Of a stretch of DNA of 64,000 nucleotides, positions 2,723 through 52,295 are shown one piece after another. The stretch covers positions 291,552-355,551 of the forward strand of contig CAZOXU010000001.1 of NCBI GenBank assembly GCA_964583975.1, in the 5' to 3' direction. A model generated the notes under the pieces. The model had not been told where the DNA came from. It ran no database searches and saw only the letters and a program-made list of their open reading frames with translations. The position numbers and the translations under genes are program-made. The first letter of the stretch is position 1. Each line of letters opens with the position of its first letter. The stretch comes from an uncultured Planctomycetales bacterium. Lineage in GTDB: Bacteria > Omnitrophota > Gorgyraeia > Zapsychrales > Fredricksoniimonadaceae.

Positions 2723-4312
2723 TTAAAATAGTTTTAATTGTTGCTTTTCTGCTTCCTTACTCTTGGATAGTTTGCGGCGTAATTTGGAATTTTCGTAAGC
2801 TTTTAAATCTTCTTCGATATCAGCCAAGAATAACGATGGCGGATTAAAATAAGTTTGTCCGAAAATTTGCCGGCGGCCAGCACGTGTGAGAAATAAATGC
2901 TCCTTGGCTCTTGTCATTCCAACATAGAAAAGCCGACGTTCTTCCTGAGCGTCTCCTTTAAGTTCATGGATATCTAACGGCAGCAGTCTAGCTTCACATC
3001 CGATCATAAAAACAACCGGAAATTCCAAACCCTTAGCCGCATGTAAGGTTAAAAGAGAGACTCGCTCGACCTTGTAATCCAAAGTTTCTTCAAAACAATC
3101 TAATATTTGTTCATCGATTTGTTCCTGCGGTAGGGGCAGGGTTTCCCTGCCCTTATTAGGGTCGGGCGACCCGACCCCTACAGTACGTTTAGCTGAAACC
3201 GAATAAGGAATTCCTAAATGATCAAGCGCTTCGATAATCACATTTTTCTGGGCATTGAGGCGATAGAGAATGGCGATATCGCCAAAACTTCTCTGAGCTC
3301 CCCGATAAGATTCAACCCGATGTGAATCTTGTGAAAACATGCTTACCCCACCGATTAACTGTTCGATCTGGTGCGCCACATACTCTGCCTCGGCGCGGTC
3401 AGTGGCTGCTTCATGGATCACCAATCTACCTTCATCATAAATCTTAGCTACTGCCTCTGGGACCTTTTGTGTGTTTTCCTTAGCAATCACCTGCGAGCTT
3501 GCGGTTAACAAATTAACGGTCGAACGATAATTCTCTGTCAGATAAAGCTTAGCTGCACCAGCAAAATCTTCTTCAAATCGATTAAAGAATCTCACCTGAC
3601 TACCGCGGAATGAATAGATACTTTGATTAGGATCACCAATTACGGTTAATATCGCCCCCTGCTGGATCAAAACCTTCAACAAGGCCACTTGGATCAAATT
3701 GATATCCTGGTATTCATCGACAAAAATATAGCGATAGCGCTGCTGGACTTGCGCGAGCACCTCTTCATTTTCCAATAACATCAAGGCCTCACGTAGGATA
3801 TCATCAAAATCAATTAGGCCCTTGGCTCGTAACAAACGGTGATATTTCTGAAAATCTGCGCTGGCATCAATGACCAATTGGGTCGATTTCGCCCAAGATA
3901 TTTCATCGAGCGCCTTTTTACGTTCAAGGGGATTTTTATCAGGAAACATCTCAGACAAGAAACCTTGGATATCTTGAGGCAACGCGATCTGGAAGTCTTG
4001 AGGCAACGGCGTATGCTGGCTAAACTCACGCAGTAAGCTTAAAGCAAATCGATGAAATGTCCCCACTGTGATGTGCCGAAAAAAACGAGCATCCTTAGCC
4101 TCTAAACGAGTGCGCATTTCATGAGCGGCTTTATTAGTAAATGTAATGGCCAGAATCTTTTCGTCTGGTTTTAAATTGTTGAGGGTGCGAAGGATTCGGT
4201 AGGTGATCGTATGAGTTTTGCCAGTTCCTGGACCAGCTACAATCAGAAGATGTGAACCCTCATGAGCAACAGCCTGCCATTGTGCATCATTAAGATCTTC
4301 GGGTCTATTCAT
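2723..4312 (-). CDS. UvrD/PcrA-family superfamily-1 DNA helicase (short, 529 aa)
   Basis: Motifs: I GPGTGKT, Ia TFTNKAAHEM, II VDEYQD, III GDPNQSIYSFRG, IV LTENYRS, V LHAAKGLEFPVV, VI YVGMTRAKE. Carries an in-frame palindromic-element insertion at 3130-3181. Confidence 0.85.
   Translation of the reverse strand: MNRPEDLNDAQWQAVAHEGSHLLIVAGPGTGKTHTITYRILRTLNNLKPDEKILAITFTNKAAHEMRTRLEAKDARFFRHITVGTFHRFALSLLREFSQHTPLPQDFQIALPQDIQGFLSEMFPDKNPLERKKALDEISWAKSTQLVIDASADFQKYHRLLRAKGLIDFDDILREALMLLENEEVLAQVQQRYRYIFVDEYQDINLIQVALLKVLIQQGAILTVIGDPNQSIYSFRGSQVRFFNRFEEDFAGAAKLYLTENYRSTVNLLTASSQVIAKENTQKVPEAVAKIYDEGRLVIHEAATDRAEAEYVAHQIEQLIGGVSMFSQDSHRVESYRGAQRSFGDIAILYRLNAQKNVIIEALDHLGIPYSVSAKRTVGVGSPDPNKGRETLPLPQEQIDEQILDCFEETLDYKVERVSLLTLHAAKGLEFPVVFMIGCEARLLPLDIHELKGDAQEERRLFYVGMTRAKEHLFLTRAGRRQIFGQTYFNPPSLFLADIEEDLKAYENSKLRRKLSKSKEAEKQQLKLF
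3130..3181. repeat. Family II nested-palindrome element, divergent copy (52 bp), inserted in-frame in the helicase gene
   Basis: GTAGGGG-CAGGGtttCCCTGCC-cttatta-GGGTCGGgcgaCCGACCC-CTAC. Outer IR GTAGGGG/CCCCTAC plus two internal hairpins. Encodes VGVGSPDPNKGRETLPL. Confidence 0.8.
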
Positions 4313-5700: not shown

Positions 5701-8196
5701 TTAAATGACAATACTAACAAGCTTCTTGGGGACGACAATAATTTTCTTGATAGTAGCCCCTTCGAGATAGCGGGCCACATTGGCATCTGCCAGGCAGAGT
5801 TTTTTCAGATCTTCATCAGAGGTGCAAACCGATGTCGTAAACTGACCACGAACCTTACCATTGATTTGAACGGCATAGGTGACTTCATCTTGCACCAGGG
5901 CTCGCTCATCAAAGGCGGGCCAGGCGACCTTACTGACGGTCTGATCTTTTTTGCCCATCATCTGCCAAAGCTCTTCGCACAAATGCGGCGTAAATGGGGT
6001 TAACAATAAGACGAGGGTTTCAATGGCTTGATTCAACGTAACCGTTGATTCTTGCTTATACTTATCAACGGCATTTGCCAAGATCATAGCCTGACTAATG
6101 GCTGTATTAAATTTATAACCTTCTTCAAAAGCTTGGGTAATCTGTCGGATAGCTAGATGACGGGCACGCTCTAAGGTTTGATCTGCTCCCTGCTCGGTGG
6201 TTTCTTTCGCATAACGTTTCTCAACCATCAAGTAAACACGGTTTAAAAATCGCCAGGCCCCCTCTAAACCATCACTATTCCATTCGAGCTGATCTTCTGG
6301 CGGAGCAGCAAAAAGAATAAATAAACGTAAAGTATCTGCACCATATCTATTTAAAACTTCATCCGGATCAACTGTGTTGCCCCGAGATTTAGACATCACT
6401 TCTCCATCTTTAAGCACCATCCCCTGGGTTAAAAGACGGACAAACGGTTCATTTAAATCAGTTAGTCCTAAATCTTTGAAGAATTTAGTAAAAAAACGAG
6501 AGTACAACAAATGTAATATAGCATGCTCGATACCACCGATGTATTGATCGACCGCCATCCAATATTTGGCTTCATCCTTATTAAAGACTTCTTGGTTGTT
6601 ATCTGCAGAACAAAACCGTAAGAAATACCAGGAAGAATCAAAGAAGGTGGCCATGGTATCGGTTTCACGGCGGGCTGCTTTAGAACATTTAGGGCACTTC
6701 ACATTAACGAAATCTTCTACACGATTTAAAGGAGAGCCTCCCTGCCCCGTGATTTCCACATTCTTAGGTAATGCTACAGGCAATTGCGCATAAGGAACAG
6801 GAACCACACCGCAAGCCTCGCAATAAATCATGGGAATCGGCGTTCCCCAGTAACGCTGGCGGGAAATCAGCCAATCACGCAAGCGCCAATGAATGGTTGT
6901 TTTACCCATGCGTTCTTGAGCCATCCATTCAGCAATTTTCTTCTTAGCTTCTTCATTATTAAGACCATCAAATTGCTTCGAATTAACCAAAACACCCGCA
7001 TCTTCATAAGCCTTGGTCATATCTTTTAATTCAAAAACCTCTTTAGGGTTTTGAATAACAATTTTCATGGCAAGCTTATGGTTGGTAGCGAATTCAAAAT
7101 CGCGCTGGTCATGGGTGGGTACCGCCATAATGGCGCCAGTCCCATACTCCATCAATACATAGTCCCCAATATAAACCGGAATAGAATCACCATTAACAGG
7201 ATTGATGGCATAACGGCCTGTAAACACGCCTTCCTTACGCTGATCGCCTGACATACGAAGGCTTTTACTTTTATTGGCTGTCTTCTCAATAAAGGTCCCA
7301 ATTTCTTTTTCTTGAGGAGTGCCAGCGACAAGTTTTTTAACCAAAGGATGTTCTGGAGCCAGGACCACATAGGTAGCCCCAAAAATGGTGTCGGGACGGG
7401 TAGTGAAAACCGGAATAATTTCGTCCGTAGGGGCAGGCCCCTGTGCCTGCCCTTCTTGAGGGCGACCACGGGGGGTCGCCCCTACAATTTTAAAATAAAT
7501 CTCTACCCCAAAACTCTTACCAATCCAATTCTCCTGCATAGCTCGCACACGTGAAGGCCAATGCTCGAGCTGCTTTAAGTCTTCCAGTAAGGTTTCAGCG
7601 TAATGAGTAATCTTTAGATACCACTGATCTAAGTCTTTTTGTTCGACATTGTTTTTGCAGCGCCAGCAAGCGCCATCGATAACTTCTTCGTTGGCTAAGG
7701 TTGTCTGACAGCTAGGACACCAATTGACGGAAGAAGCTTTCTTATAGGCAAGCCCACGTTCATACATCTTTAAAAAGATCCACTGATTCCATCGGTAGTA
7801 GTCACTGTCGCAAGTGGCAATTTCACGGTCCCAGTCATAGGCAAAGCCCATTTTCTTGAGTTCTTCTCTCATCTGGTCGATACATTGGTAGGTCCACTGA
7901 CCTGGGTCGGTCTTATGTTTGATAGCCGCATTCTCAGCAGGCTGACCAAAGGCATCGTAGCCCATGGGGTGAAGCACATTAAACCCTTGCATCATTTTGT
8001 AACGGGCCATCACATCGCCGATGGTATAGTTACGCACATGGCCCATATGAATCTTGCCCGAAGGATAGGGAAACATTTCTAAGACATAATACTTCTTCTT
8101 AGAAGCATCCGCTTCGACTTTAAAAGTCTTGCGCTGTTCCCAGAAACGTTGCCATTTTGATTCAATGGATTTGATGTCGTTGGTGGTATAAGGCAT
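5701..8196 (-). CDS. leuS: Leucyl-tRNA synthetase
   Basis: HMGH (PSGKIHMGHVRNY) and KMSKS (VMSKSRGN) class-I motifs; TTRPDT editing-domain motif; bacterial LeuS length. Contains a 59-bp element insertion. Confidence 0.95.
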   Translation of the reverse strand: MPYTTNDIKSIESKWQRFWEQRKTFKVEADASKKKYYVLEMFPYPSGKIHMGHVRNYTIGDVMARYKMMQGFNVLHPMGYDAFGQPAENAAIKHKTDPGQWTYQCIDQMREELKKMGFAYDWDREIATCDSDYYRWNQWIFLKMYERGLAYKKASSVNWCPSCQTTLANEEVIDGACWRCKNNVEQKDLDQWYLKITHYAETLLEDLKQLEHWPSRVRAMQENWIGKSFGVEIYFKIVGATPRGRPQEGQAQGPAPTDEIIPVFTTRPDTIFGATYVVLAPEHPLVKKLVAGTPQEKEIGTFIEKTANKSKSLRMSGDQRKEGVFTGRYAINPVNGDSIPVYIGDYVLMEYGTGAIMAVPTHDQRDFEFATNHKLAMKIVIQNPKEVFELKDMTKAYEDAGVLVNSKQFDGLNNEEAKKKIAEWMAQERMGKTTIHWRLRDWLISRQRYWGTPIPMIYCEACGVVPVPYAQLPVALPKNVEITGQGGSPLNRVEDFVNVKCPKCSKAARRETDTMATFFDSSWYFLRFCSADNNQEVFNKDEAKYWMAVDQYIGGIEHAILHLLYSRFFTKFFKDLGLTDLNEPFVRLLTQGMVLKDGEVMSKSRGNTVDPDEVLNRYGADTLRLFILFAAPPEDQLEWNSDGLEGAWRFLNRVYLMVEKRYAKETTEQGADQTLERARHLAIRQITQAFEEGYKFNTAISQAMILANAVDKYKQESTVTLNQAIETLVLLLTPFTPHLCEELWQMMGKKDQTVSKVAWPAFDERALVQDEVTYAVQINGKVRGQFTTSVCTSDEDLKKLCLADANVARYLEGATIKKIIVVPKKLVSIVI
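7427..7485. repeat. Family II nested-palindrome element, copy A (59 bp), in-frame inside leuS
   Basis: GTAGGGG-CAGGcccctgtgCCTGCC-cttcttga-GGGCGACCacgggGGGTCGCCC-CTAC. Translated as RGRPQEGQAQGPAP immediately before the TTRPDT motif. Confidence 0.9.
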
Positions 8197-9944: not shown

Positions 9945-10938
9945 AGACTTACTTGAGGACCAACGCCCGCAAGCCCTAGAAGAAATTGCCCAGGAAGCTG
10001 CTCGGGTGACTCGACAATATTTTGGCCGTACTATTGGATTGTATGCCCCGCTTTATTTATCGAATTACTGCTCCAGTCATTGCACCTACTGCGGCTTTCA
10101 TAGTAATAACAAAATTACTCGCATAAAGCTTACTCCTGATCAATATCGCCAAGAAATGCAGGTCATTCACTCTCAAGGCATCCGTAATATTCTCATGCTT
10201 ACAGGCGAATCATATAAACACACGCCGGTTGAATATTTAAAAGAAGCAGCCCAGGCTGCCTCGGAGTATTTTCAAGGCATTGCACTTGAAGTCCATCCTA
10301 TGAAAACCAATGAATATCAAGAACTCTTTACTGCAGGGGTCGATGGCATTACGGTTTATCAGGAAACCTATGACCGCAGCCGCTATGCGCAGGTGCATCT
10401 TTCTGGCTACAAAAAAGATTATGATTTTAGACGAGCCACTCCCCAGCGAGCTGCTGAAGGTGGCATGCGCCAGATTGCCATGGGCGTTCTTTTAGGATTG
10501 AGTGATGCTGCTAGCGATCTTCTAGAACTTTATAACCACTTACGCGAGATGGAACAATCTTTTCCTGGCGTTGAGTACAGCGTTTCCTTTCCCAGGCTTC
10601 GCACTATTAAAGACAAAGAATTTGCCCACTGTGATGTCGATGATATCCAATTAACCAAGATTGTTGCCTTAACACGCATCCTTTTTCCTCGGGTAGGAAT
10701 CAATCTTTCCACCCGTGAAGATGCGCGCTTACGTGATCATTTGCTTGAAATCGGAATTACCCGTATGTCCGCAGGTTCAAATACATCGGTGGGTGGATAC
10801 TCTCTGCTGAACGAAGAAGAACAAGACCCTCAATTTGATATTAAAGATGAACGCTCGGTGGCTGATATTATTGCCCTACTTAAACGTAAGAATTTTGATC
10901 CTGTCTTTACGGACTGGCGACGAATTGAAAATAGGTAA
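9922..10938 (+). CDS. thiH: Radical-SAM 2-iminoacetate synthase ThiH (tyrosine lyase)
   Basis: [10 protein letters not shown] radical-SAM cluster motif; located in the thiS-thiG-thiH cluster. Confidence 0.8.
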
Positions 10939-10943
10939 AAAAT

Positions 10944-11048
10944 GTCATCCCCGAATGCTTTTATCGGGGATCCAGGCACAAGTGCCAGCCAGAGGCTGGT
11001 CAGCCCTGGACTGAAACTAGGTTCCCGATTAAAACGTTCGGGGATGAC
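10944..11048. repeat. Family I palindromic element, copy 2 (105 bp, extra GC-rich hairpin inserted in its centre)
   Basis: GTCATCCCCGAATGCTTTTATCGGGGAT...GTTCCCGATTAAAACGTTCGGGGATGAC, with the internal palindrome CCAGCCAGAGGCTGG. Intergenic between thiH and thiF. Confidence 0.85.
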
Positions 11049-11060
11049 ATAAGGTTATCC

Positions 11061-12508: not shown

Positions 12509-14476
12509 TTAAATGACTCGATCATTTCCCCCATCTATGGGGATTTGCGCGCCGGTGGTCTTGGCAAAGATGCGACCTGCCAAGCAACAAACTAAATCAG
12601 CCACATGATAAGAGGTGATTTCTGTCTTTAAAAGATTGCTCTTTTTGTAGTCTTCAATCGACAGACCATAAGCTTTGGCGCGCTTCTCTAAAACTTCCTT
12701 GGTCCAAATCGCTGTATCAAATACTTGATTAGGATGAACCACATTCACACGAATACCTTGGGGCGCTAATTCCAGAGCTGCCACTCTGGCCATTTGGGTT
12801 AGACCTGCCTTGGCGACCGAATACGCCCCTGCTCCAGGGCCTGGTGCTGGAACATTCTTAGAACCAATGATAATAAAGGTCGGATCAATACCCTGACTCA
12901 AATACGAAATAGCAGCCTTCAACAAACGCTGATGCGAAGTTAAATTAATCTTCACGCTGCGATCCCAAGTCTCAGGATTCATATTCTCAAGAGTTTCGCT
13001 GGCAGGAAAAATACCTGCATTACTCACCACAATATCCAAACCACCAAATCGTCTGACCGTGGCAGCCACAGCTTTCTGCAATTCAGCATCCTTAGTCACA
13101 TCACAAACCATTCCTACCACACTTACTCGGTTAAAGATCTTGGTAATTTCCTTATTGATATCAAGCGCCACTACGTGTGCTCCCTGAGCAGCTACTCTCT
13201 CAACACAGGCCTTGCCGATCCCGCTCGCCGCGCCAGTCACCAATGCAATCTTGCCTTGCAGCTCGAGCGGCTTAGGGTTCTTGGCAAGCTTGGCTTGCTC
13301 GAGCTCCCAGTATTCCATCTCAAAAATATCTTTCTCAGACAAAACCTTCCAGCCGCCCAAGCCCTCGGCAATCTGAATAGCAGCAATCGTATGCTCCACG
13401 ATATCGGAAATGATCTGGGCATCCTTGATCGAGCGACCAAAGCTTACTAACCCTTGTCCTGGCCACACAGCCCAGCGTGGGGCTAGATCAAGGCACTTCA
13501 ATTTGTTATTGGTATTGCAGTCAAAATAGAATTGATAATTCTTAGCGTAGGCTACGACATCCTTGGCAGGATCTTTGCCGATGACAACCGGAATAGGTTT
13601 GGTGCGAATCACGTGATCAGGGGTGAGTGTGCCTCGGGTGGCGATTTTTCCTACATCTGGAAGTTTTGAGAAGCCAACTGAACCAGCATCGTTTCTTAAA
13701 TCGGCAATAACTGCTGCCCCCAAAGCTACCGAGACAGCCTTTCGTATTTTACTTAAGGTTAATAACTCTTCCGAGCCAGCCTTGGCCGAAGCAATCTTAA
13801 TTCGCTTCTTAGCAATGAACTTCTCTGCCTCGATGACTAACCGGATATGATTTTCGTAGCTCGTCTTGGCATCATCACCAAAGGTGAATAAGCCATGGTT
13901 TAATAAAACAATGCCCTCGCACTTACTCCAATTCAGATCACGTGTCATTTCATAAACTTTTTTAGCTAACACAAAGCCAGGCATTACATAAGGAACAACT
14001 AAAACGCGATTGCCGTAAATTTCTTTAATAAGCGAGGCACCCTTAGGCGTATTGGTAATGGTTACAACAGCATCAGTGTGTGAGTGATCGACAAAGGTAT
14101 GTGGAATAATGGCGTGCAGGATGGCTTCGACCGACGGATTGGGTGCATGCGGATTAATCATGGCTGCTCTTTGCCCCACGACCATTTGCGCATCAGACAG
14201 CTCTGAAAAGGTAGCCATACGCTTTAAGGCGTCCAACCTGACAGCAGCAAACCCTTCCGCTTCAATCGTAGCTAAATCCCAGCCACTGGCTTTAATATAG
14301 AGAACTTCTTGGGTGTCTTGGAAGAAATCTTTGACGAGGGCTTTGACAGAAGTATTGCCACCCCCGTGCATAACCAGGGATGGCTCTCTTCCTAAAAGAC
14401 GAGACGTGTAAACACGTAGCTTTAGTGGATCATTTCCACAAACATCCGCTACCTGTTGGTCCCACAAACTTTTCAT
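12509..14476 (-). CDS. Bifunctional class II aldolase/adducin-domain plus short-chain dehydrogenase (rhamnulose-1-phosphate aldolase/SDR-like)
   Basis: N-terminal class II aldolase domain; C-terminal SDR with the TGAASGIGKA Rossmann motif and a YxxxK region. Confidence 0.75.
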   Translation of the reverse strand: MKSLWDQQVADVCGNDPLKLRVYTSRLLGREPSLVMHGGGNTSVKALVKDFFQDTQEVLYIKASGWDLATIEAEGFAAVRLDALKRMATFSELSDAQMVVGQRAAMINPHAPNPSVEAILHAIIPHTFVDHSHTDAVVTITNTPKGASLIKEIYGNRVLVVPYVMPGFVLAKKVYEMTRDLNWSKCEGIVLLNHGLFTFGDDAKTSYENHIRLVIEAEKFIAKKRIKIASAKAGSEELLTLSKIRKAVSVALGAAVIADLRNDAGSVGFSKLPDVGKIATRGTLTPDHVIRTKPIPVVIGKDPAKDVVAYAKNYQFYFDCNTNNKLKCLDLAPRWAVWPGQGLVSFGRSIKDAQIISDIVEHTIAAIQIAEGLGGWKVLSEKDIFEMEYWELEQAKLAKNPKPLELQGKIALVTGAASGIGKACVERVAAQGAHVVALDINKEITKIFNRVSVVGMVCDVTKDAELQKAVAATVRRFGGLDIVVSNAGIFPASETLENMNPETWDRSVKINLTSHQRLLKAAISYLSQGIDPTFIIIGSKNVPAPGPGAGAYSVAKAGLTQMARVAALELAPQGIRVNVVHPNQVFDTAIWTKEVLEKRAKAYGLSIEDYKKSNLLKTEITSYHVADLVCCLAGRIFAKTTGAQIPIDGGNDRVI

Positions 14477-14489
14477 AAATTAATCTCAT

Positions 14490-14557
14490 GTCATCCCCGA
14501 ATGTATTTATCGGGGATCTAGTACACTAGGTTCCCGATTAAAGCATTCGGAAACGAC
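14490..14557. repeat. Family I palindromic element, copy 3 (68 bp, right terminus degenerate)
   Basis: GTCATCCCCGAATGTATTTATCGGGGATCTAGTACACTAGGTTCCCGATTAAAGCATTCGGAAACGAC. Intergenic between the aldolase/SDR gene and cysK. Confidence 0.85.
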
Positions 14558-14568
14558 AGAAAGTTTTC

Positions 14569-36089: not shown

Positions 36090-39000
36090 CTACCCTTTGG
36101 CTAGCTGGGTGTTCTTTTGAAGCTGCGAGAACATGGGCAAAGTGATGGCTGGCCTGATTTCCATGATAACCGGCACCAGACCATCAATATGAATATTTTC
36201 CAAATTCTGCTGACTAATTGGCAGCGGCACACCTGCTCCATCACGCTTGATCTGCAAATTCAAATTTGCTGCGTTAAAGTCGATACCACCCTTTGTCGCC
36301 ATTGCAGAGTCAGAGATTTTATCCGTCACGTATTGCACGATATCGCCAACCGTTCGAAGTGATGCCGTTTTGTCGTTAGGAATTCGAATATTAAAACTAT
36401 CCTCAAGCTCTATCATTAGCACAATGACGTCTTGAGAATCTACACTGAAATCCTTTTGGAGATCATCGGTATCTTTAAATTCAATGTGATCAAGACTTGG
36501 AACTACTTTCTTGATTGCTTCATGTACTTTCTGTCTTACCCCTTCAGATTTGGTTGTCATGGCAGAATCATATAAAGCGTTTATTTGATCTTTAATCGCT
36601 TTAATTTCTTGGTCCAATTTTTGCAATTGATTCCCCAAAACTGTTGGGCTATATGCTCCCCCTTGTTGAGCCCCATATCCCCTTCCCAAAGCCGACACAT
36701 AATCGACGTTAACCTTAACTCTTTGAGCACTCAATTCGCTTTCTTTATTTTGCAATTTCCTTCTATAATCAGTTTTTGAAATTACTTCTATATTCAGCTT
36801 CTCTGCTACGATTGACAATGCCCCTTCTTGAGTAAGAAGCTCTGCTGCGGTAATTCTTTGAAATGCATCATCTGACAAAACAATTGTCGTATTCTCAACG
36901 CCTTCACTTAAATATCTCTCAAATGCAACCATAGGGTCATTGTTCTGGGAAATCTCAAGATCTGCTTTTCCATCTCTAGAAATTTTTAATTTCCCTGAAG
37001 ACCATGAAACACTCGTATGTATTTTATTAAAACCTATCATCCAATAATTAGCATTTTGATAATTATAAAACACATCGACCTCGCCACTTGTTGCTTGTAA
37101 AACGCCTGTCTTCTTACCTGTAAACGCCATTTTTTGCTCTTGTAAACCATTGAAGTCCGGTGCGTTAACTAATTGGTCAAAGGCTTCACGCCATAAAGGA
37201 ATTTTAATCTTTGTAATCGCAATCATCGCTTCATCAACAAACCTAGCCTGGTGATCGTCTTGATCTGGACGACCTATTTCTGCCTGAGCCTGATGAATAG
37301 CAGTATCGAGGCTATCTAATTCTCGCTGCAGGGTCTCAATTTCCATTGCGTGCTGTAATCTGTCAGATTCATTATTCTGAACAGCAGCGGCATTCATTAA
37401 TTTGCGCTCTTGGGCTATTCGATCATTAATCTTACCTTGTTGCTTTAGAAGATTATCTAAACTTGTTTGAGGCAATTCGCCACGCATCGCGGCATCGCCG
37501 CTTCCAGTAGCGTTACTAATCTCTGCCCATGCTGTATTAATTTCTGCTTTTACATTCTCAAGTTCGCGCTTCAATACATCAATTTGTACTCTTAAACGGC
37601 TTATTATTGAAGGATTTGCAACAACATTTACACCCGCTGCTGCTGTATTTTTGGCGTACTCTGCATCTAATTCTCGTTGAAATGAATCAATTTGAGCTTG
37701 AATCGATCTTTGACGCTGTTCTAATTCGCCTTTTTGTTTGGAAGCTGTCAAAAGTTTAGCAGCACCAAGATTGGATTGATTGATACCTGCTTCTAATCGC
37801 GCTTGGGGTGGCAATTCGCCACTCATCGCGGCGTCAGAATCATCACGGCCGTTATCAATTTCTGGCAGTAACGCAAGAATATTGACCTTTATTCTTTCAA
37901 GCTGAATCTGTAATGCAGCAATTTGTGGTCTTAACGAATCGGCTTTAGTACGATCTAACTCTAATTCTTTTTGCAGACTATCGATTTGTGCTTGAAGCTC
38001 GCGTTGTTGCGCTTCTAACTGTCCTTTTCTAACTGAAGGACTGATCTGTAGATCACTTCTATTCGCCATTGCCGCGTCAGCCTTCGCTGTTGTCACTACT
38101 CCTTGACCCTCTTTAATAGGAGAAACTAATTTTGTATCAATGCCCTTGGCCTCAATGGCAGATAAAACAATATTTCTAATGTCAGGATCTATGCTACTAT
38201 CGGTATTGATTAATCCTGCTTTTTGTAGTGTAGCCTTTGGCCCATCATAAATCTTAAAATCTGGACTTCTTGCTAAATCTTCCAAATCAGCTAATGTCAA
38301 TGCGCCTAGAGTTTGATTCAACACTCCTCTTAACTTCTCCATCGTGCTATCCACCACTTCCTTACTTGCTTGCGATCCATTTCTTAAAGTGACTACATCC
38401 ATCGCTGCATCAAAACCTTGTAATAAATTCAATTCCTCTTGCGCCCTTAGCAGGGATTTTTCTGTTTTTCTTAAAGCTGCTTCCAAATCAGTCATTTTTG
38501 CAAACTTATCCTCTGCTCTTGCTATGGCCAACTCACGATTAAGCCCATCAAATTGACCTTCCAACTCTTCAACCTTTTTTTGAGCATCAGCAATAGCTTG
38601 AGAAGATTTTTGAGCCGCCATCGCGGAGTCTCTGCGCAAGATTTCATCCCAAATTCGCTGCATTATTTTCTTATCATTTGTTATTTGCTTGGCAATTCTT
38701 TTTCGTTGACGCGAACTTAAAAGAAAACTATCGACTATTGCGACTCCAATGGCATGATGCGCTGCCCACAAGGAAGATAGATAGATCGTCTGAAGCGCTG
38801 TCTTATAATTCTTACTAACAGCCAAATCAAAAATTTGCAAAGGGCTCATTTTCTTTAAACGGGGCTTAGCCGCCATCGCTGCATCTTTTTTAGTCTTCAT
38901 CGCATCTTTGATAGCACCTAAGGCTTTTACATATTTGAGTTCGGTCAATGTTCTATCAGCAATGCCATCTTCTAAATAGTCTGCTGCTGCTTGAAGTTCA

Positions 39001-40745
39001 TCTGATGTAATTTGATCTGTTGGCTCCTCATTAATAAACTGATCAACAACTACAGATGGGGTGAGCTTTACTACGTCACTTTGTAGCGATTCAACTTTTT
39101 CTTCTAACTTTTTCAGCAATTGATTCAAAACTGCCAATTCTCCAACCAATTTATTGCCTGCGCCTTGAACTCGTCGCAAAGCTCTGACATTTTCTCGATC
39201 CTTCAACATTAATCTTGTTGCACGAATAACTGTCAATATTTGCTGACGCTTTTCAGCATCCCCTATCGCAAGACGCTTCAAATCGATACCACGAAACACA
39301 TTAGAAACCGCAGCAATTCTTGCCAAAATTGATTGAAAAAGGAGAACGTCTTTACCATTTCCGCTGATCGCACCTTCCATACTTGTAATAACACTGTCGA
39401 ATTTTATATTTAACGTTCTGATCAAATCCTCTGAATCTTCTTCAGCCTTTGTCATCGCCGCATCAGCCTCAGACTTCTCTGCTAATACAGCTTCTACAGC
39501 ATCTAACTTTCCCGCCTCGGTAGTCAGGATCGGCGTTGCCATAGCAGAATCGGTTGTTGTGCGCATTACCTTTCCATATTCATTCTTTGTTCCACCTGAA
39601 AAATACTTCCTTGGCACGGGCTGATGGGTGAATCGGTCGGTGTCTTCTTTAATATAGTTAAATACACCCTTCTTATAAGCCTTAATGTATTGCTGATAAA
39701 TGGCTTCATTGTTCTTAGGATCTTGATTAATACCGTTAACCTTGGCTTTGTTAGCATAGATCTTGCTTAATAGAGATTCCTTCAAAGCTCGCTTGTACCA
39801 GGCTGCTAAAATCATGCCGCTATACACCTGACGAAGCATGACAAAGTTCTTGCCTTCATTGACTTCTTTTTCAAGGGCTGGAAGTACTATTTCACGGACG
39901 ATTTGGGAGCCGATTTGATTGGTTTCCGTAGGGGCAGGCCCCTGTGCCTGCCCTTCTTGAGGGCGACCACGGGGGGGCGCCCCTACAGCATTTTTATTCA
40001 TAGCCATGTAATCCTCTTCTAGCATCACCTTCAAATGATTCTTTAACACATACGCTGTATTACCAGATTCATACACCGTGGCATCATCTGGCACAATCCA
40101 TACCTTATTAAAGGTATTAACTGGAATCTCTGTGCTGCCAAATTGCTGCTGAGCTTGGGTATACACCTTATCCCAGAACTTCTTACCTAACTCATCTTCA
40201 GGGTATATTAAAGAAGCAGTGATTTGCTTTAATAGGTAGTCTTGAGCTAATAAATCCCGGCCCATCTCAGTCTTACCAAAGTCTTCTTCTACGATACGGT
40301 TCTTTTCATAGGGTGATAGGTTGACCCATTGATTCTCATCAGGCACGGCTAAAGAAGCCATAAAGTACTTAATTAAATTCTTATAAGCGATTTGTTTATC
40401 TTGATCAGATAGACTTTCATCACCTTTGTAGATGATGAAGTCGAATTTAAGAGGATTTTCAGGATGAATAACTAAACCTTTAAGATGTGCAGGGGTGAAT
40501 TCAGGGCTTAGAGCAACTCTGACTCCTGGACTTGGCATCCATGGCATCGAACCAGCAGCCACTTGAGAATAAGCAGGCCGTTGAATGGAAGTACTAAGAA
40601 AAGTCACTAAAATGGTGATAGAAATAAACTTACGAATGGTCATAAAAACCCTTCTTCCTGAGGTATAAATAGTAAATTTGGGGTCAAAAATTCTACACTT
40701 CTTGAAATATGCGGCAAGTATGCCATGGGAAAAGCGCTTTGTCAA
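36090..40745 (-). CDS. Giant secreted modular protein (probable start 40642, ~1517 aa) with coiled-coil repeats, recurrent D-[SA]-A-M-x motif, and a C-terminal acyl-carrier-protein-like domain
   Basis: Long single ORF. Signal peptide follows the internal Met (MTIRKFISITILVTFLSTSIQRPAYS), which is preceded by AGGAAG. Carries a palindromic-element insertion at 39928-39986. The ACP-like segment is FSVDSQDVIVLMIELEDSFNIRIPNDKTASLRTVGDIVQYV. Confidence 0.7.
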   Translation of the reverse strand: MTKRFSHGILAAYFKKCRIFDPKFTIYTSGRRVFMTIRKFISITILVTFLSTSIQRPAYSQVAAGSMPWMPSPGVRVALSPEFTPAHLKGLVIHPENPLKFDFIIYKGDESLSDQDKQIAYKNLIKYFMASLAVPDENQWVNLSPYEKNRIVEEDFGKTEMGRDLLAQDYLLKQITASLIYPEDELGKKFWDKVYTQAQQQFGSTEIPVNTFNKVWIVPDDATVYESGNTAYVLKNHLKVMLEEDYMAMNKNAVGAPPRGRPQEGQAQGPAPTETNQIGSQIVREIVLPALEKEVNEGKNFVMLRQVYSGMILAAWYKRALKESLLSKIYANKAKVNGINQDPKNNEAIYQQYIKAYKKGVFNYIKEDTDRFTHQPVPRKYFSGGTKNEYGKVMRTTTDSAMATPILTTEAGKLDAVEAVLAEKSEADAAMTKAEEDSEDLIRTLNIKFDSVITSMEGAISGNGKDVLLFQSILARIAAVSNVFRGIDLKRLAIGDAEKRQQILTVIRATRLMLKDRENVRALRRVQGAGNKLVGELAVLNQLLKKLEEKVESLQSDVVKLTPSVVVDQFINEEPTDQITSDELQAAADYLEDGIADRTLTELKYVKALGAIKDAMKTKKDAAMAAKPRLKKMSPLQIFDLAVSKNYKTALQTIYLSSLWAAHHAIGVAIVDSFLLSSRQRKRIAKQITNDKKIMQRIWDEILRRDSAMAAQKSSQAIADAQKKVEELEGQFDGLNRELAIARAEDKFAKMTDLEAALRKTEKSLLRAQEELNLLQGFDAAMDVVTLRNGSQASKEVVDSTMEKLRGVLNQTLGALTLADLEDLARSPDFKIYDGPKATLQKAGLINTDSSIDPDIRNIVLSAIEAKGIDTKLVSPIKEGQGVVTTAKADAAMANRSDLQISPSVRKGQLEAQQRELQAQIDSLQKELELDRTKADSLRPQIAALQIQLERIKVNILALLPEIDNGRDDSDAAMSGELPPQARLEAGINQSNLGAAKLLTASKQKGELEQRQRSIQAQIDSFQRELDAEYAKNTAAAGVNVVANPSIISRLRVQIDVLKRELENVKAEINTAWAEISNATGSGDAAMRGELPQTSLDNLLKQQGKINDRIAQERKLMNAAAVQNNESDRLQHAMEIETLQRELDSLDTAIHQAQAEIGRPDQDDHQARFVDEAMIAITKIKIPLWREAFDQLVNAPDFNGLQEQKMAFTGKKTGVLQATSGEVDVFYNYQNANYWMIGFNKIHTSVSWSSGKLKISRDGKADLEISQNNDPMVAFERYLSEGVENTTIVLSDDAFQRITAAELLTQEGALSIVAEKLNIEVISKTDYRRKLQNKESELSAQRVKVNVDYVSALGRGYGAQQGGAYSPTVLGNQLQKLDQEIKAIKDQINALYDSAMTTKSEGVRQKVHEAIKKVVPSLDHIEFKDTDDLQKDFSVDSQDVIVLMIELEDSFNIRIPNDKTASLRTVGDIVQYVTDKISDSAMATKGGIDFNAANLNLQIKRDGAGVPLPISQQNLENIHIDGLVPVIMEIRPAITLPMFSQLQKNTQLAKG
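39928..39986. repeat. Family II nested-palindrome element, copy B (59 bp), in-frame inside the giant ORF
   Basis: Nearly identical to copy A (differs by about 2 nt, in the second hairpin). Encodes PPRGRPQEGQAQGPAPT. Confidence 0.9.
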
Positions 40746-41998: not shown

Positions 41999-42063
41999 AA
42001 AATTAGGGACAACCCCCTATTTTATCCTTTCACTTAAGAAAATAGGGAGTTGTCCCTAATTTT
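41999..42063. repeat. Family III palindromic element, copy 1 (65 bp): AAATTAGGGACAACCCCCTATTTT ... AAAATAGGGAGTTGTCCCTAATTT
   Basis: Hairpin with an ~20-bp stem; stem differs from copies 2/3 by paired changes (ACCC/GAGT vs GCGC). Encodes the last 8 codons plus stop of miaA. Lies 2 nt upstream of the hflX start. Confidence 0.85.
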
Positions 42064-44944: not shown

Positions 44945-45616
44945 TTATTGGGCACGGCTTAATTCAAACACAAAACCCTTAACGCGGCCGGTCACAGGAT
45001 CTTTGACCTTTGAGGTCATTCGGGCTATCTCTTCTGTCGAACACTCGTCTTCAAATTTCACCACCAGCCGGCGGCTAGGCTTAGAGCGGTTATGGACCTT
45101 GGCTACAGGTTCCTGGCCCAAAAAACAACCCTTGGTATACGAGGTAAATTTAAACTCATCGATATTTAGAATAAATTCATCCGCCTGAAAATCTCCGCCG
45201 GAGACGGATCCGCCTTTGGCGGAAACGCCCATCAAAGGGATTTTTCTTTCAAGTCGAAAGAGGGTAAATTCCTCATCAGAAACATTACTTTCTGTTATTT
45301 CATTTGAGAAAACCACGCGGCCTGAATCGATATTCATATACGACCGATACTCTGCCGATGGGATAAGGCTTGTATGATTAAGCTTAGCATAGCGCTCAAG
45401 ATGTTTTAACAACGCCTCGTTAGCCACTTGAGGTACGCTTAATAAAAAGTGATCTTCCGATCGCTTTTCTTGGGCGCAGGTGGCAATGACCCGGCCATGT
45501 TGATTTAAAAAGGCATTAAAAGGCTGATCTAGTGAATTAGACGTCAGGCCGTTTAAGAATTTCTCAGCATTGCCGCTAACTTCTAAGACAATATCATCAA
45601 GTTTGTATAGTCGCAT
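44945..45616 (-). CDS. YgfZ/GcvT-like folate-binding protein
   Basis: Conserved KGCFLGQE motif of the YgfZ family. Confidence 0.5.
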   Translation of the reverse strand: MRLYKLDDIVLEVSGNAEKFLNGLTSNSLDQPFNAFLNQHGRVIATCAQEKRSEDHFLLSVPQVANEALLKHLERYAKLNHTSLIPSAEYRSYMNIDSGRVVFSNEITESNVSDEEFTLFRLERKIPLMGVSAKGGSVSGGDFQADEFILNIDEFKFTSYTKGCFLGQEPVAKVHNRSKPSRRLVVKFEDECSTEEIARMTSKVKDPVTGRVKGFVFELSRAQ

Positions 45617-45618
45617 AT

Positions 45619-45687
45619 AAATTAGGGACAGCGCCCTATTTCACCCTATTTTTTCTTGCTTGCTAAATAGGGCGCTGTCCCTAATTT
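45619..45687. repeat. Family III palindromic element, copy 2 (69 bp): AAATTAGGGACAGCGCCCTATTT caccctattttttcttgcttgct AAATAGGGCGCTGTCCCTAATTT
   Basis: Perfect 23-bp inverted arms. Provides the cca C-terminus KLGTAPYLASKKK plus stop. Abuts the start of the downstream gene. Confidence 0.9.
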
Positions 45688-47052
45688 AGCTGCCAACACC
45701 AACGCTTCTTGTTTCGTAGCTATCTTCCCCAATGCTTGAGCCTCTTGAACTTCAGATAGAATCTTCGTAAATAGCGGCGATGGTTTTAATTTAAGCTTTT
45801 TGATTAAATCATGCCCCGTCAACAAACGTACCAGAGGTTTCTGATTTTGACTGTCGATAAAACGCTCGATCACCTGCCAGCAGGTTTTACGATGATGCTC
45901 ACTCTTGGCCTTCTTGGTCAAAGGCCCACGTGTGGCTCGCTGATCAGCGAGCGCTAAAAGTAAAACACTTAAAGCTTCCTGCTTTGTATCACGCAAAAAA
46001 CGAAAAACCATTCGCTCGGAAGGTTGTTTAAAATTTGACATATATCCTGGGCGCAAATGCCAGGCCACCATATCTTCTAAGAAATATCGCTCCTTGACCG
46101 CCAACTTTAAATGTTTAGCCACAATGCGGGTGATATCAGCCCCCACCTTTTCATGACCATGAAAGGTCATGCGGTCTTTTTCTTTTTTCTTGGTGTCAGG
46201 TTTACCGATATCATGCAACAGACAAGCAAACTTCAACAACGCATATCGCTTGTGATTGGCTGCAATTTCTTCTTGGAGATAATTTTGAATAAATGGATCT
46301 TCGATTTCGAGAGCTAACAGTTCAAACTGACGTACCACCTCGAGCGAATGCTTCCAAACATCCAGATGATGATATCCGCCTTGATGAACGCCTTCCATCA
46401 CACCGAGTTGGGGCATGATCTTTTGCAGTAATCCTGCTTTGTGCATCAAAACAATGGTCTCAACCGTTCTGCTAGAAGCTAAAACCTTAAACCATTCTTC
46501 TCGAACCCGCTCGACCGAAACCTTACTTATGCGACTAATATCTTTTTGAATCTGCTTAAAAGTCTTAGCTTCGATCTTAAATCCCAACTGAGCCGATAAA
46601 CTAAAGGCTCGCATTAGTCTCAGCGGATCATCAGCAAAAGCCCGGGACGCGACCATCCTGATAGTCTTTGATTTCAGATCTTTAGTGGCCCCACGATAAT
46701 CCAATATCTTCGTATCATTAATACTCTGGCATAAGGTATTGATCGTAAAATCACGTAGGGCTACATCCTTCTGCAGTGATTCAGCACGAAAATCAGAAAA
46801 ATCATAGGTCCACAGTTGCCCTTCTTCTTTTTTGACAACCCGTCCGCACGGATGTTCTTCATCTAAAAGAACAAAAGCCCCTTTGATCTTTTTAGCAAAG
46901 GCCCGAGCCAGTTCGATTGCATTCTTCGAGACCGTAAAATCAAAATCAAAACCTTCGCGGTTTAAATATTGGTCGCGTAAACGGCCGCCAACCAAATAAA
47001 CCGAAACTCGGCCTCGAGCTGCTAATGTTTGGATAGTAGATAAATACTTCAT
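45646..47052 (-). CDS. cca: CCA-adding tRNA nucleotidyltransferase / poly(A) polymerase family with HD domain
   Basis: Pol-beta nucleotidyltransferase N-terminus YLVGGRLRDQYL..DFDF and HD motif LLHDIGKP. Confidence 0.75.
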   Translation of the reverse strand: MKYLSTIQTLAARGRVSVYLVGGRLRDQYLNREGFDFDFTVSKNAIELARAFAKKIKGAFVLLDEEHPCGRVVKKEEGQLWTYDFSDFRAESLQKDVALRDFTINTLCQSINDTKILDYRGATKDLKSKTIRMVASRAFADDPLRLMRAFSLSAQLGFKIEAKTFKQIQKDISRISKVSVERVREEWFKVLASSRTVETIVLMHKAGLLQKIMPQLGVMEGVHQGGYHHLDVWKHSLEVVRQFELLALEIEDPFIQNYLQEEIAANHKRYALLKFACLLHDIGKPDTKKKEKDRMTFHGHEKVGADITRIVAKHLKLAVKERYFLEDMVAWHLRPGYMSNFKQPSERMVFRFLRDTKQEALSVLLLALADQRATRGPLTKKAKSEHHRKTCWQVIERFIDSQNQKPLVRLLTGHDLIKKLKLKPSPLFTKILSEVQEAQALGKIATKQEALVLAAKLGTAPYLASKKK

Positions 47053-47459: not shown

Positions 47460-47948
47460 CTATTTGCCTTTCTTCTTTTTATTCTTTCCTAAAATCGTCT
47501 GCAATTCCGACATAAACTGGTTCACATCACGAAACTGGCGATACACAGAAGCAAATCTTACATAAGCCACTTCATCAACAGTTGAAAGCTGATTCATCAC
47601 CATCTCACCAATATCTTTAGCCTCAACTTCATGATCGTATTTTTTACGAACGACCCGCTCGATCTCATCCACCATTGATTCAATTTGATCAACACTCACA
47701 GGCCTTTTTTCACAAGCCTTGATGATCCCATTTGTAATCCGTGTTCGATCAAAAGTCTGTCTTCGGCCGTCACGCTTAACTACCATCAAAGGCACCTGCT
47801 CAATATATTCGTAGGTGGTAAAACGTTCTTCACATTTAGGACATTTGCGTCGGCGACGAATGGATGTCCCATCGCTGTTCATGCGAGAATCAACAACATT
47901 CGTATCTTTATAGTGACAAGCAGGACAGCGCATATATTTACATGTCAT
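47460..47948 (-). CDS. nrdR: Transcriptional repressor NrdR (conserved N-terminus MRCPACH begins at 47933)
   Basis: Zinc ribbon CPACH..CPKC followed by an ATP-cone. The first five codons (MTCKY) are contributed by the terminus of a Family I element. Confidence 0.85.
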   Translation of the reverse strand: MTCKYMRCPACHYKDTNVVDSRMNSDGTSIRRRRKCPKCEERFTTYEYIEQVPLMVVKRDGRRQTFDRTRITNGIIKACEKRPVSVDQIESMVDEIERVVRKKYDHEVEAKDIGEMVMNQLSTVDEVAYVRFASVYRQFRDVNQFMSELQTILGKNKKKKGK

Positions 47949-48066
47949 CCCCGAAATCTTTTACCTGCCTGCCGGCAGGCAGGTCGGGGATCTAGAGCTT
48001 GCAAGAAAATCTCTGATTTCCGCCAAAGGCGGACCAGCCTCAGGCTGGAAAACATTCGGGCTAGAC
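47944..48066. repeat. Family I palindromic element, copy 4 (123 bp, divergent, with internal CCTGCCTGCCGGCAGGCAGG palindrome)
   Basis: GTCATCCCCGAAATCTTTTACC...TCGGGGATCTAGAGC...GGAAAACATTCGGGCTAGAC. Intergenic between nrdR and glyA. Confidence 0.8.
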
Positions 48067-49312: not shown

Positions 49313-49329
49313 AATCTCCTCTTAAGATT

Positions 49330-49397
49330 GTCATCCCCGAATGCTTTTATCGGGGATCTAGTGCACTAGTTGCCCGACTAAAACATTCGGGCATGAC
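49330..49397. repeat. Family I palindromic element, copy 5 (68 bp)
   Basis: GTCATCCCCGAATGCTTTTATCGGGGATCTAGTGCACTAGTTGCCCGACTAAAACATTCGGGCATGAC. Intergenic between glyA and rpiB. Confidence 0.85.
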
Positions 49398-49402
49398 AGG
49401 TG

Positions 49403-49855
49403 TTATTTCATAAACTTCTTCTCAATCGCTTGAATCTGTTCAAATCGTCTCTGGTGACGACCACCTTCAAATGGGGTAGTTAACCAAGTCTCAACTATAG
49501 GAATGATATTGGCAGCTTCAATAAAAAGTGAGCCTAAAACTAAAATATTGGAATTGTTATGTTCACGCGATAACTTAGCAGCTTCCTTGGTATAACACAA
49601 AGCCGCATAGGCGCCTGGAACTTTATTGGCAGCAATTGAATGTCCTATTCCTGTCATACACACTAGAATTCCACGAGCATCGGCATTGCCAGCAACCTTG
49701 CTTGCCACCTCTAAAGAAAATTGCGGGTAATCACAACCCATTTCTTCTTGAAAGGTGCCTACATCAACTACTTCATGCCCCTTTTTGCTTAAGGATTCCA
49801 CAATGCTCTTTTTTAATTCGAATCCTCGATGATCTGCGCCAATATAAATTTTCAT
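49403..49855 (-). CDS. rpiB: Ribose-5-phosphate isomerase B
   Basis: RpiB/LacAB fold; ~150 aa with the active-site region GIGHSIAANK. Confidence 0.85.
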   Translation of the reverse strand: MKIYIGADHRGFELKKSIVESLSKKGHEVVDVGTFQEEMGCDYPQFSLEVASKVAGNADARGILVCMTGIGHSIAANKVPGAYAALCYTKEAAKLSREHNNSNILVLGSLFIEAANIIPIVETWLTTPFEGGRHQRRFEQIQAIEKKFMK

Positions 49856-50919: not shown

Positions 50920-50923
50920 AATT

Positions 50924-50996
50924 AAATTAGGGACAGCGCCCTATTTCACCTTATTTTTTCTTTCTTACTTGCTAAATAGGGCGCTGTCCCTAATTT
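50924..50996. repeat. Family III palindromic element, copy 3 (73 bp)
   Basis: Arms identical to copy 2. Provides the purD C-terminus KLGTAPYLASKKEKIR plus stop. Abuts the tsaC start. Confidence 0.9.
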
Positions 50997-52259
50997 AGCA
51001 AGGGCTTTTTGTCCAATATCACGTCTAAAGAAGATATGATCAAATTGGATCTTATCGACAGATTCATAGGCCTTGGCAATGGCTTTTTCAAGTGAAGCAC
51101 CTAAACTAGCAACACCTAAAACTCTTCCCCCCGCTGTGACTAGAGAACCGCCATCATTTTTTGTTCCTGCGTGAAAAACAATAGTGTCTGGATCATTAAT
51201 ATCTTCTAGGCCCTTGATCTCATAACCATTTTGATATTTGCCAGGATATCCGCCGGAAGTCAAGACCACACAGACACATGATCGCTGGTCCCATTGTACC
51301 TTTAATTCATTGAGTCTGCCGTCACACGAAGCCAACATGATTTCAACAAGATCGCTTTTCAATTTAGGTACAATACTCTGCGTTTCTGGGTCACCAAAAC
51401 GCGTGTTAAATTCTAACACAAATGGCCCGCTATTGGTTAACATTAAGCCTGCGTACAATACTCCCTTAAATGGTACACCCTGGGCATACATTCCCCGCAA
51501 AGTAGGTTCAATAATTTTCTTAATAATGATATCTAAAATCTCTGCAGTCACAATTGGGGCAGGACAATAAGAACCCATACCACCGGTATTCGGCCCTAAA
51601 TCTTCATCAAAAATCCGTTTATGATCTTGAGCGCTAGGCAAAACCAAAAAATGTTTGCCATCACAAATCGCCAACACCGAGGCTTCCTGACCTTGCAGGC
51701 AATCCTCAACGACGATTCTTTCTCCAGCCGTTCCATAAAGCTTCTGAACCATGATTTCATCAACAGCTATCTGGGCTTCTTTTAAATTGGCGCACACATA
51801 CACACCTTTACCTGCTGCAATCCCGTCAGCTTTAACTACCAAAGGAAATCTCGCTGAGTTCAAGAAATCTAAGGCATCGATAAATCTTTCAAAAACTTTA
51901 TAGCTGGCGGTTGGGATATCATGACTCGATAAGAATTGTTTCGTATAAATCTTGCTGCCTTCTAATTGTGCAGCTTCCTTACTTGGACCAAAGATCTTCA
52001 GTCCTTTTTGAGAAAAGACATCAACAATACCAACAACCAAGGCTGCCTCGGGGCCTACCACGGTCAGGTCAATTTTCTTAGATAGAGCAAATTTCAACAA
52101 GCCTTCGATATCATCAACAGCAATATTGACGCACTCGGCAATCTGAGCGATACCACCATTGCCTGGGGCGCAATAAAGCTTCTTAACCTTAGGACTCTGT
52201 TTGATCTTCCAGCACAGCGCATGCTCTCTGCCGCCAGAACCAATGACTAGAATGTTCAT
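50946..52259 (-). CDS. purD: Phosphoribosylamine-glycine ligase
   Basis: ATP-grasp PurD; MNILVIGSGGREHAL N-terminus. Confidence 0.9.
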   Translation of the reverse strand: MNILVIGSGGREHALCWKIKQSPKVKKLYCAPGNGGIAQIAECVNIAVDDIEGLLKFALSKKIDLTVVGPEAALVVGIVDVFSQKGLKIFGPSKEAAQLEGSKIYTKQFLSSHDIPTASYKVFERFIDALDFLNSARFPLVVKADGIAAGKGVYVCANLKEAQIAVDEIMVQKLYGTAGERIVVEDCLQGQEASVLAICDGKHFLVLPSAQDHKRIFDEDLGPNTGGMGSYCPAPIVTAEILDIIIKKIIEPTLRGMYAQGVPFKGVLYAGLMLTNSGPFVLEFNTRFGDPETQSIVPKLKSDLVEIMLASCDGRLNELKVQWDQRSCVCVVLTSGGYPGKYQNGYEIKGLEDINDPDTIVFHAGTKNDGGSLVTAGGRVLGVASLGASLEKAIAKAYESVDKIQFDHIFFRRDIGQKALAKLGTAPYLASKKEKIR

Positions 52260-52268
52260 TTTTTCCCT

Positions 52269-52295
52269 GTACGGGCTGGGTAACCCAGCCCCTAC
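52269..52295. repeat. Mini single-hairpin relative of Family II: GTACGGG-CTGGGtaaCCCAG-CCCCTAC
   Basis: Shares the CCCCTAC terminus; the other terminus is one mismatch from GTAGGGG. Fills the purM-purD intercistronic gap and overlaps the purM stop. Confidence 0.6.

Follow-up and report, generated by a model that had tools for sequence, protein, structure and literature searches.

GTAG-tagged REP heterodimers in frame within protein-coding genes of an Omnitrophota genome

Introduction

GTAG-tagged repetitive extragenic palindromic (REP) sequences were defined by Di Nocera, De Gregorio and Rocco in 2013, who numbered 24 GTAG families and described head-to-head and tail-to-tail dimers as well as heterodimers (PMC3733652). 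The TAG of the tag serves as a stop codon, and a minority of the elements are genic; the genic dimers encode 20-30 aa in hosts that include UvrD/Rep helicases and tRNA synthetases, and among the species of that study Opitutus terrae has the largest number of intragenic cases (PMC3733652). A GTAG-tagged REP has a GT[AG]G tetranucleotide 0-2 nt from the base of a GC-rich stem-loop of 20-40 nt. In recB of two Xanthomonas species, different REPs occupy about the same site (PMC3733652). Here we analyze elements of this kind in a 64-kb window, the whole stretch of 64,000 nt at positions 291,552 to 355,551 of contig CAZOXU010000001.1 (assembly GCA_964583975.1), from an uncultured bacterium of the phylum Omnitrophota. 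The analysis started from a palindromic repeat within leuS, the gene for leucine-tRNA ligase.

Rickettsia palindromic elements (RPE), reportedly described by Ogata et al. in 2000, are a second described system to be compared. RPE-4 and RPE-6 belong to the CGTC-tagged superfamily, and RPE-1 is much longer (PMC3733652). REPINs were described by Bertels and Rainey in 2011 (PMC3116915). For subclass 2.4 of the TnpAREP proteins (group 4 of Bertels), Quentin et al. (2018) described REPs whose stem base consists of three G-C pairs, along with "double foot" variants and REPs inside tnpAREP genes (PMC6006769).

A preliminary description of the window had interpreted the leuS repeat as a member of a distinct, RPE-like family. 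Our analysis led to a different classification: with their GTAG feet, GGG/CCC hairpins and pairing of unlike units, the elements are head-to-head GTAG-REP heterodimers, REPIN-like and of published architecture (PMC3733652, PMC6006769), and not a new class. The new aspects are the host phylum, an apparent preponderance of genic copies, and the repeated occupation of the same protein loops with turnover of the sequences found there.

Results

The pattern GTAGGGG-N-CCCCTAC was found exactly three times in the window, as a 52-nt match in a UvrD-like helicase gene and 59-nt matches in leuS and in an open reading frame (ORF) for a 1551-aa protein (Table 1). No match was obtained in 100 dinucleotide-preserving shuffles. 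Together with a single unit in an intergenic gap, the copy number in 64 kb is three dimers and one single unit. All three dimers lie within long minus-strand ORFs whose reading frames contain no stop across the elements, and the GC content of the elements is 0.65-0.75 compared with 0.41 for the window. The copies in leuS and the 1551-aa ORF are the same at 58 of 59 nt, with 1 mismatch. The gap-free block common to the two is 63 nt long (7424-7486 and 39925-39987); these 21 codons may represent the unit that actually moves, or the 4 extra common bases could be due to chance. The GC-rich nested palindrome in the leuS frame, its almost identical copy in an unrelated giant protein and the divergent third copy in the helicase had all been noted in the preliminary description, and each was found as described there.

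Table 1. Positions of the REP elements in the window and of the genes that contain them
Feature	Position	Strand	Details
REP head-to-head heterodimer in leuS	7427..7485	.	LeuS residues 238-257
leuS unit A	7427-7452	+	GTAGGGGCAGGCCCCTGTGCCTGCCC
leuS dimer spacer	7453-7459		7 nt between units A and B
leuS unit B	7460-7485	-	GTAGGGGCGACCCCCCGTGGTCGCCC
Second copy of the leuS dimer	39928..39986		Units 39928-39953 (+) and 39961-39986 (-); in frame in the 1551-aa ORF
Third dimer, other stems and loops	3130..3181		In frame in the UvrD-like helicase
Helicase dimer, first unit	3130-3152	+	GTAGGGGCAGGGTTTCCCTGCCC
Helicase dimer, second unit	3159-3181	-	GTAGGGGTCGGGTCGCCCGACCC
Single REP unit	52273..52295	-	GTAGGGGCTGGGTTACCCAGCCC; in a 32-bp intergenic gap
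leuS (leucine-tRNA ligase, 831 aa)	5701..8196	-	Host gene
Short UvrD/Rep-family helicase (529 aa)	2723..4312	-	Host gene; Pfam UvrD-helicase 1.3e-65, UvrD_C 1.6e-38
1551-aa protein	36090..40745	-	Host gene

We examined the anatomy of the units. In leuS, the plus-strand unit reads GTAG-GGGCAGGC-CCCTGT-GCCTGCCC and the minus-strand unit GTAG-GGGCGACC-CCCCGT-GGTCGCCC. Both halves fit GTAG + GGGC-NNNN-CCCYGT-NNNN-GCCC, sharing the GTAG foot, the GGGC…GCCC stem base and the CCCYGT loop, and they differ by compensatory stem changes (AGGC/GCCT versus GACC/GGTC). Each of the seven units in the window begins with GTAG and continues directly into the stem (GTAG-GGG…CCC in all), with stems of 8-10 bp, and paired units are separated by 6-7 nt. 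The inverted pairs have GTAG outermost at both ends, which corresponds to the head-to-head (HH) type of PMC3733652. The TAG of the single unit (52294-52292) doubles as the stop codon of the ORF at 52292-53299.

Two alternative folds were predicted for the dimers as single-stranded DNA, a pair of hairpins or a single long one, with energies of -19 to -21 kcal/mol (z -3.7 to -6.0). For the leuS dimer, the one-hairpin and two-hairpin forms are almost equally stable (-21.1 versus -20 kcal/mol, z near -4). The single unit gave -9.6 kcal/mol, and z across the single unit and the dimers ranged from -3.5 to -6.0. As mRNA, the dimer was predicted to form a hairpin of -38.5 kcal/mol. A search of the window with Rfam at gathering thresholds returned no match.

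We read the elements as GTAG REPs because their GTAG feet, GGG/CCC stem bases and head-to-head dimers match the published definitions (PMC3733652, PMC6006769). The likeness to the GTAG REPs and REPINs covers the terminal GTAG, the GC-rich hairpin, the inverted head-to-head pairing of two unlike units, the use of TAG as a stop codon, and the presence of dimers in genes, UvrD/Rep helicases and tRNA synthetases among them (PMC3733652). The window differs in its host, since Omnitrophota is not among the phyla named in those portions of PMC3733652 and PMC3116915 that we drew on, and in its very short spacers. It also differs in location: three of four sites lie in ORFs, whereas the published families are mostly extragenic, an extragenic location being typical of GTAG REPs without defining them (PMC3733652). 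The three G-C pairs at the stem base are shared with the REPs of TnpAREP subclass 2.4 (PMC6006769).

A dimer scan of one genome per species with the pattern GTAGGGGCAGG-N-CCTGCCC-N-CCCCTAC returned at least 120 loci, with Acidobacteriota, Chloroflexota, Planctomycetota, Desulfobacterota, Binatia, Bacteroidota, Omnitrophota and other phyla among the matches. Many of these loci have the two-unit layout, e.g., GGGCAGGCCCCCGTGCCTGCCC…GGGCAACCACAGGGGGTTGCCCCTAC.

Next, the translated segments were compared with orthologs. The minus-strand translation of the leuS dimer is VGATPRGRPQEGQAQGPAPT, in frame, and that of the copy in the 1551-aa ORF is VGAPPRGRPQEGQAQGPAPT; both segments are 20 aa long and read VGA[T/P]PRGRPQEGQAQGPAPT. 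The helicase dimer is read as VGVGSPDPNKGRETLPLP. Judged from the sequence, such segments, e.g., the peptide GRPQEGQAQGPAPT, would be translated as protein, and the three host genes look essential. In an alignment of 120 LeuS homologs, most read FKV-KDS-xE-xIxVFTTRPDT, and the 20-aa segment of the window's LeuS replaces KDS with a net gain of 17 aa over the orthologs. The peptide had been placed directly before TTRPDT; it does precede this motif, but it ends 7 residues ahead of it. Where the insert sits, 17 residues have no counterpart in the solved LeuRS structures 1h3n and 4aq7. In an AlphaFold2 model of LeuS with a mean predicted local distance difference test score (pLDDT) of 83, residues 238-257 form coil between strands 227-238 and 256-265, and pLDDT falls below 50 at residues 242-252. 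The model thus places the insert in the loop at the tip of a beta-hairpin leading into the editing domain. These data agree with the earlier expectation that the site is tolerant of insertion.

In the syntenic ortholog L132 (gene order thiS, AdoMet decarboxylase, leuS, MJ0043_C, helicase, cation efflux), both the leuS site and the helicase site are empty. In the sister Omnitrophota genome L121, whose LeuS is 81% identical and whose gene order is the same as that of the window, the helicase site contains a different REP dimer. The helicase insert lies where longer UvrD homologs carry a long extra segment, which we take to be the place of the 2B domain; the short clade has only a linker there. 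For the N-terminal domain of the 1551-aa protein, the closest homologs (P0271 and P0272, 70% identity) lack the segment, and the insertion site is a hypervariable linker. By these alignments, the segments in LeuS, the helicase and the 1551-aa protein are insertions absent from orthologs, which is the indel that the preliminary description had expected; its view of mobile-type palindromic repeats that add peptide to unrelated genes was likewise borne out.

Furthermore, the contents of the leuS site differ among relatives. The window, L121 and L122 have common junctions, AAA-RTT/GTAGGGG … CCCTAC/N-GAY-GA (slashes mark the borders of the insert), enclosing a CCCCYGT-loop dimer in the window and a TTCCAAA-loop dimer in L121. 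L122 and L133 carry single "double foot" REPs (GTAG…CTAC) at this site, a form known from TnpAREP subclass 2.4. The leuS inserts of the window and L121 are 62% identical, whereas the leuS dimer of the window shares 87% identity with a dimer of the same subfamily at a different site in the L121 helicase, one that is empty in the window and L132. REPs are therefore more alike at non-orthologous than at orthologous sites, a pattern that favors their having been replaced or re-inserted over drift; the 62% identity at the orthologous site also led us to reject vertical descent of the leuS insert. In a neighbor-joining tree of LeuS, at least six or seven separate clades carry different inserts at this loop, with empty-site lineages between them. 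In other Omnitrophota, repeats of further palindromic families are translated within other LeuS loops and within the linker of the 1551-aa protein. Two LeuS homologs that cluster with the REP-bearing ones, P0077 and P0090, have only VG-TDE and VG-DNQ at the loop; these residues may mark the footprint (GTAGG…AC) of a hairpin since lost.

We then evaluated genic location among the pattern loci listed with less than 50% GC, a range in which long ORFs seldom arise by chance. Of the 28 dimers there, only two lie in a long open frame, one in a RAYT gene (REP-associated tyrosine transposase) and one in the Omnitrophota locus L098. By comparison, intragenic sites account for 3/4 in the window, which is ~95% coding, and 4/5 in L121. 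Because these samples are small and were partly chosen via leuS, the intragenic shift in Omnitrophota is a lead and not a result. In L098 (1884-1978), a double-foot REP is nested in the spacer of a CCCCCGT-loop dimer, and a 656-aa ORF runs through the whole, giving VGVTPRGYPSVGAGFKPAPTLQSGQARGPAPT. Judged by sequence alone, the 656-aa product may be a membrane VWA/TPR protein (BatB-like).

All in-frame Omnitrophota copies that we examined start with GTA GGG, encoding Val-Gly, at the 5' foot. Of the other two frames on the same strand, one opens with a TAG stop and the other is open but rich in Cys, Trp and Arg; selection on the peptide is therefore sufficient to account for the frame bias. The three window dimers have the same chromosomal orientation, and the window shows negative GC skew throughout. 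IS200/IS605 elements insert strand-specifically. Because all host genes are on one strand, strand-specific insertion is inseparable here from host-gene strand.

Finally, we investigated the link with RAYT genes. L121 contains a RAYT-like ORF of 183 aa (12596-13160) between leuS and the next gene on the helicase side. Its product matched Pfam Y1_Tnp at 2e-7 (31.6 bits, cutoff 23), and its best NCBIfam match was REP_Tyr_transpos at 1.2e-18 (67 bits, under the equivalog cutoff of 80); the sole PDB sequence found, 4er8 (E. coli TnpAREP), fell short of significance (E = 0.09). The protein has the motifs MPNHIHGII, WQRNYYE and YIQDNP. In its NHIH, WQ and YIQDNP motifs and its length of ~183 aa, it resembles subclass 2.4 of TnpAREP, an assignment made from motifs and REP type and not from phylogeny. 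One REP dimer is translated inside the gene as VGAGSEPAFMPNGAGLEPAPT, immediately after the HUH motif, and a second, whose arms match the L121 leuS insert, overlaps its 3' end. This arrangement, with one dimer inside and one at the 3' end, is the same as the published layout of TnpAREP subclass 2.4 (PMC6006769). A RAYT-like gene is absent from the equivalent position in the window, L132 and L133; the window has an 80-bp spacer between leuS and the next gene.

Of the 120 pattern loci listed, 6 contain a homolog of the L121 RAYT-like protein (Planctomycetota, Zixibacteria, Thermodesulfobacteriota, Chloroflexia, Bacteroidota and Longimicrobiaceae). The dimer lies within the gene after the MPNHxHGI (HUH) motif in five of them and at the 3' end in one. 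RAYT genes with REP dimers after the HUH motif include those of L121, L062, L105 and L026. These findings are strong evidence for an association of the window-type REP with RAYT genes and are not evidence of mobilization in the window's genome.

Discussion

The anatomy of the elements, the near-identical copies in unrelated genes, their absence in orthologs, the site in a LeuS loop and the physical association of REP with RAYT elsewhere are directly supported. We consider it likely that the elements are RAYT-type GTAG-REP heterodimers that were copied in trans and kept only in tolerant, in-frame sites. It is probable to the same degree that they are REP dimers of the RAYT subclass 2.4 type in the intragenic mode already published. 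A RAYT encoded elsewhere in the genome and acting in trans would recognize the GTAG foot and hairpin on single-stranded DNA and copy the dimer to new places, mostly hitting genes, intergenic space being almost nil. A copy would survive only where it preserves the reading frame, introduces no stop and lies in a surface loop or linker; the survivors would be translated as short Gly/Pro/Ala-rich loops. What we infer is the action of a RAYT of the same genome, the translation of the segments and their neutral passenger status; mobilization in particular is inferred because the window contains no RAYT.

Several points weigh against this explanation. A tblastn search of the 64-kb window found no RAYT homolog. 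The earlier remark that no transposase lies nearby thus holds for the window; it does not extend to L121, where a RAYT-type gene stands beside leuS, nor to the six other loci with RAYT homologs. We know of no organism in which RAYT-driven REP transposition has been directly shown. Codon-by-codon comparison of occupied and empty sites revealed no target motif and no target-site duplication. Lengths of 59 and 52 nt are not multiples of 3, so that insertion of exactly such units cannot account for the kept frame and the insertion events are not reconstructable. The 62% identity at the orthologous leuS site is also unexplained by simple insertion and drift. Two further candidates were considered. 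Miniature inverted-repeat transposable elements derived from a DDE insertion sequence fit less well, as no duplication was seen at any junction between occupied and empty sites, although the empty sites are those of orthologs only ~80% identical. An assembly artifact was judged improbable and rejected, given flanks colinear with orthologs and intact frames.

The REP dimers may instead be fossils, the RAYT having been lost or become inactive, so that copies merely persist or are homogenized by recombination or gene conversion. The lack of a RAYT in the window, the 80-bp spacer in place of the L121 gene and the difference between relatives at the fixed leuS site, as though REPs had been replaced in place, are all in line with this. 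On the other hand, the 58/59 identity in two unrelated genes argues for recent copying, the sister genome L121 retains an intact RAYT-like ORF, and the absence of a single-copy gene from 64 kb says little. We regard fossil status as unlikely.

Another explanation, compatible with copying in trans by a RAYT, is that the elements are kept for a function, either as an mRNA hairpin that pauses translation or sets stability or as a useful flexible loop. The predicted RNA hairpins are very stable, the in-frame Omnitrophota copies share the Val-Gly start, and the same loops are occupied repeatedly. However, the host proteins are unrelated, the sequence turns over at each site, and many orthologs manage without the segment. 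The frame bias is also expected from selection against the Cys/Trp/Arg-rich frames, and insertion in varied, unrelated proteins was taken to speak against functional constraint in PMC3733652. Retention for a function therefore appears quite improbable to us.

A new coding-sequence-tolerated palindromic family, RPE-like and unrelated to REP and RAYT, was the preliminary interpretation. Like RPEs, the window elements are inserted in frame in many unrelated, often essential genes and add peptides tolerated in loops, and they match no Rfam family. Their termini differ, as had been noted: they end in GTAG/CTAC, with neither the CGTC tag of RPE-4 and RPE-6 nor a longer palindrome, and they measure 52-59 nt and reside in another host (PMC3733652). 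The CGTC families have no described association with RAYT. The dimer of the window occurs at the 120 or more loci in many phyla and inside RAYT genes, and the dimers of the low-GC loci are nearly all extragenic. Since GTAG feet, GGG/CCC stem bases and head-to-head dimers define GTAG REPs (PMC3733652, PMC6006769), a separate family is very improbable. That the segments are ancestral low-complexity loops is hardly credible: the closest LeuS relatives (P0002-P0006) do have extra residues at the site, but nearly identical stretches of 59 nt occur in two unrelated genes, syntenic orthologs have empty sites, and empty-site lineages separate the LeuS clades with different inserts.

Beyond copying in trans by a RAYT, we tentatively raise a broader possibility, which on present data remains doubtful. 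In Omnitrophota, the main habitat of subclass-2.4-type REPs, and of at least one other palindromic family, may have shifted from intergenic DNA to protein loops. Tolerant loops such as the hairpin ahead of the LeuS editing domain and the linkers in the helicase and the 1551-aa protein would then be reusable landing pads at which REPs are exchanged in place, perhaps with the old GTAG feet themselves as RAYT targets. If this is true, these proteomes would preserve a history of REP turnover and lend themselves to the study of how transposase-driven repeats give rise to protein indels.

No new mechanism is revealed by these results. They extend RAYT-type REP systems and in-frame protein decoration to Omnitrophota, a phylum of uncultured bacteria. 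They suggest that differences in loop length in this phylum, as in LeuS, the helicase and the large phylum-restricted protein, are often translated mobile repeats and not ordinary indels, which matters for annotation, alignment and phylogeny of Omnitrophota metagenome-assembled genomes. The LeuS loop, used repeatedly by different repeats, offers a concrete place to see how REPs choose, or survive at, their targets.

Additional observations

A metagenome scan with a spacer-specific 23-mer detected nine contigs (L123-L131), all from organisms of 61-67% GC with CCTTGT loops and none of the window's lineage. Their dimers have an identical TTCTTGA spacer and conserved flanks (…CCACGTAGGGG … CCCCTACCGATTTCCCGCTTG); in these organisms the dimer seems to belong to a larger repeat unit.

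Along the 1551-aa protein, the motif D[AS]AM recurs over the whole length. More than 1300 homologs were found for its N-terminal domain (~370 aa), nearly all of the named ones from Omnitrophota; no precomputed Pfam domain covers this region, and three of the matches list Pfam domains. From its sequence alone, the C-terminal part may be an acyl-carrier-type domain.

The window also contains a second palindromic family, consisting of inverted pairs of TGTCATCCCCGAATGCTTTTATCGGGGATCTAG at 1725-1808, 10938-11059, 14484-14568 and 49324-49408, with a partial copy at 47938-47975. Each pair almost fills an intergenic gap. SFPNASVGNP, PNALIGNP and SSVIP, apparent translations of this repeat, occur as in-frame inserts at other LeuS loops in other Omnitrophota and resemble the VIPAKAG-type peptides of CGTC-tagged REPs (supplement of PMC3733652).

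A third family is formed by AAATTAGGGACAGCGCCCTATTT and its complement, 24-nt inverted repeats without mismatch that are 15-27 nt apart, at 42000-42063, 45618-45690 and 50923-50997. They occupy three gene junctions within one run of co-oriented genes, reaching into the 3' ends annotated for the ORFs upstream. Finally, a short GC-rich repeat, CCAGCC…GGCTGG / TTTCCGCCAAAGGCGGA, is common to 10985-11016, 45197-45225 and 48017-48048, one copy being located within the spacer of a pair of the TGTCATCCCCGAATGCTTTTATCGGGGATCTAG family.

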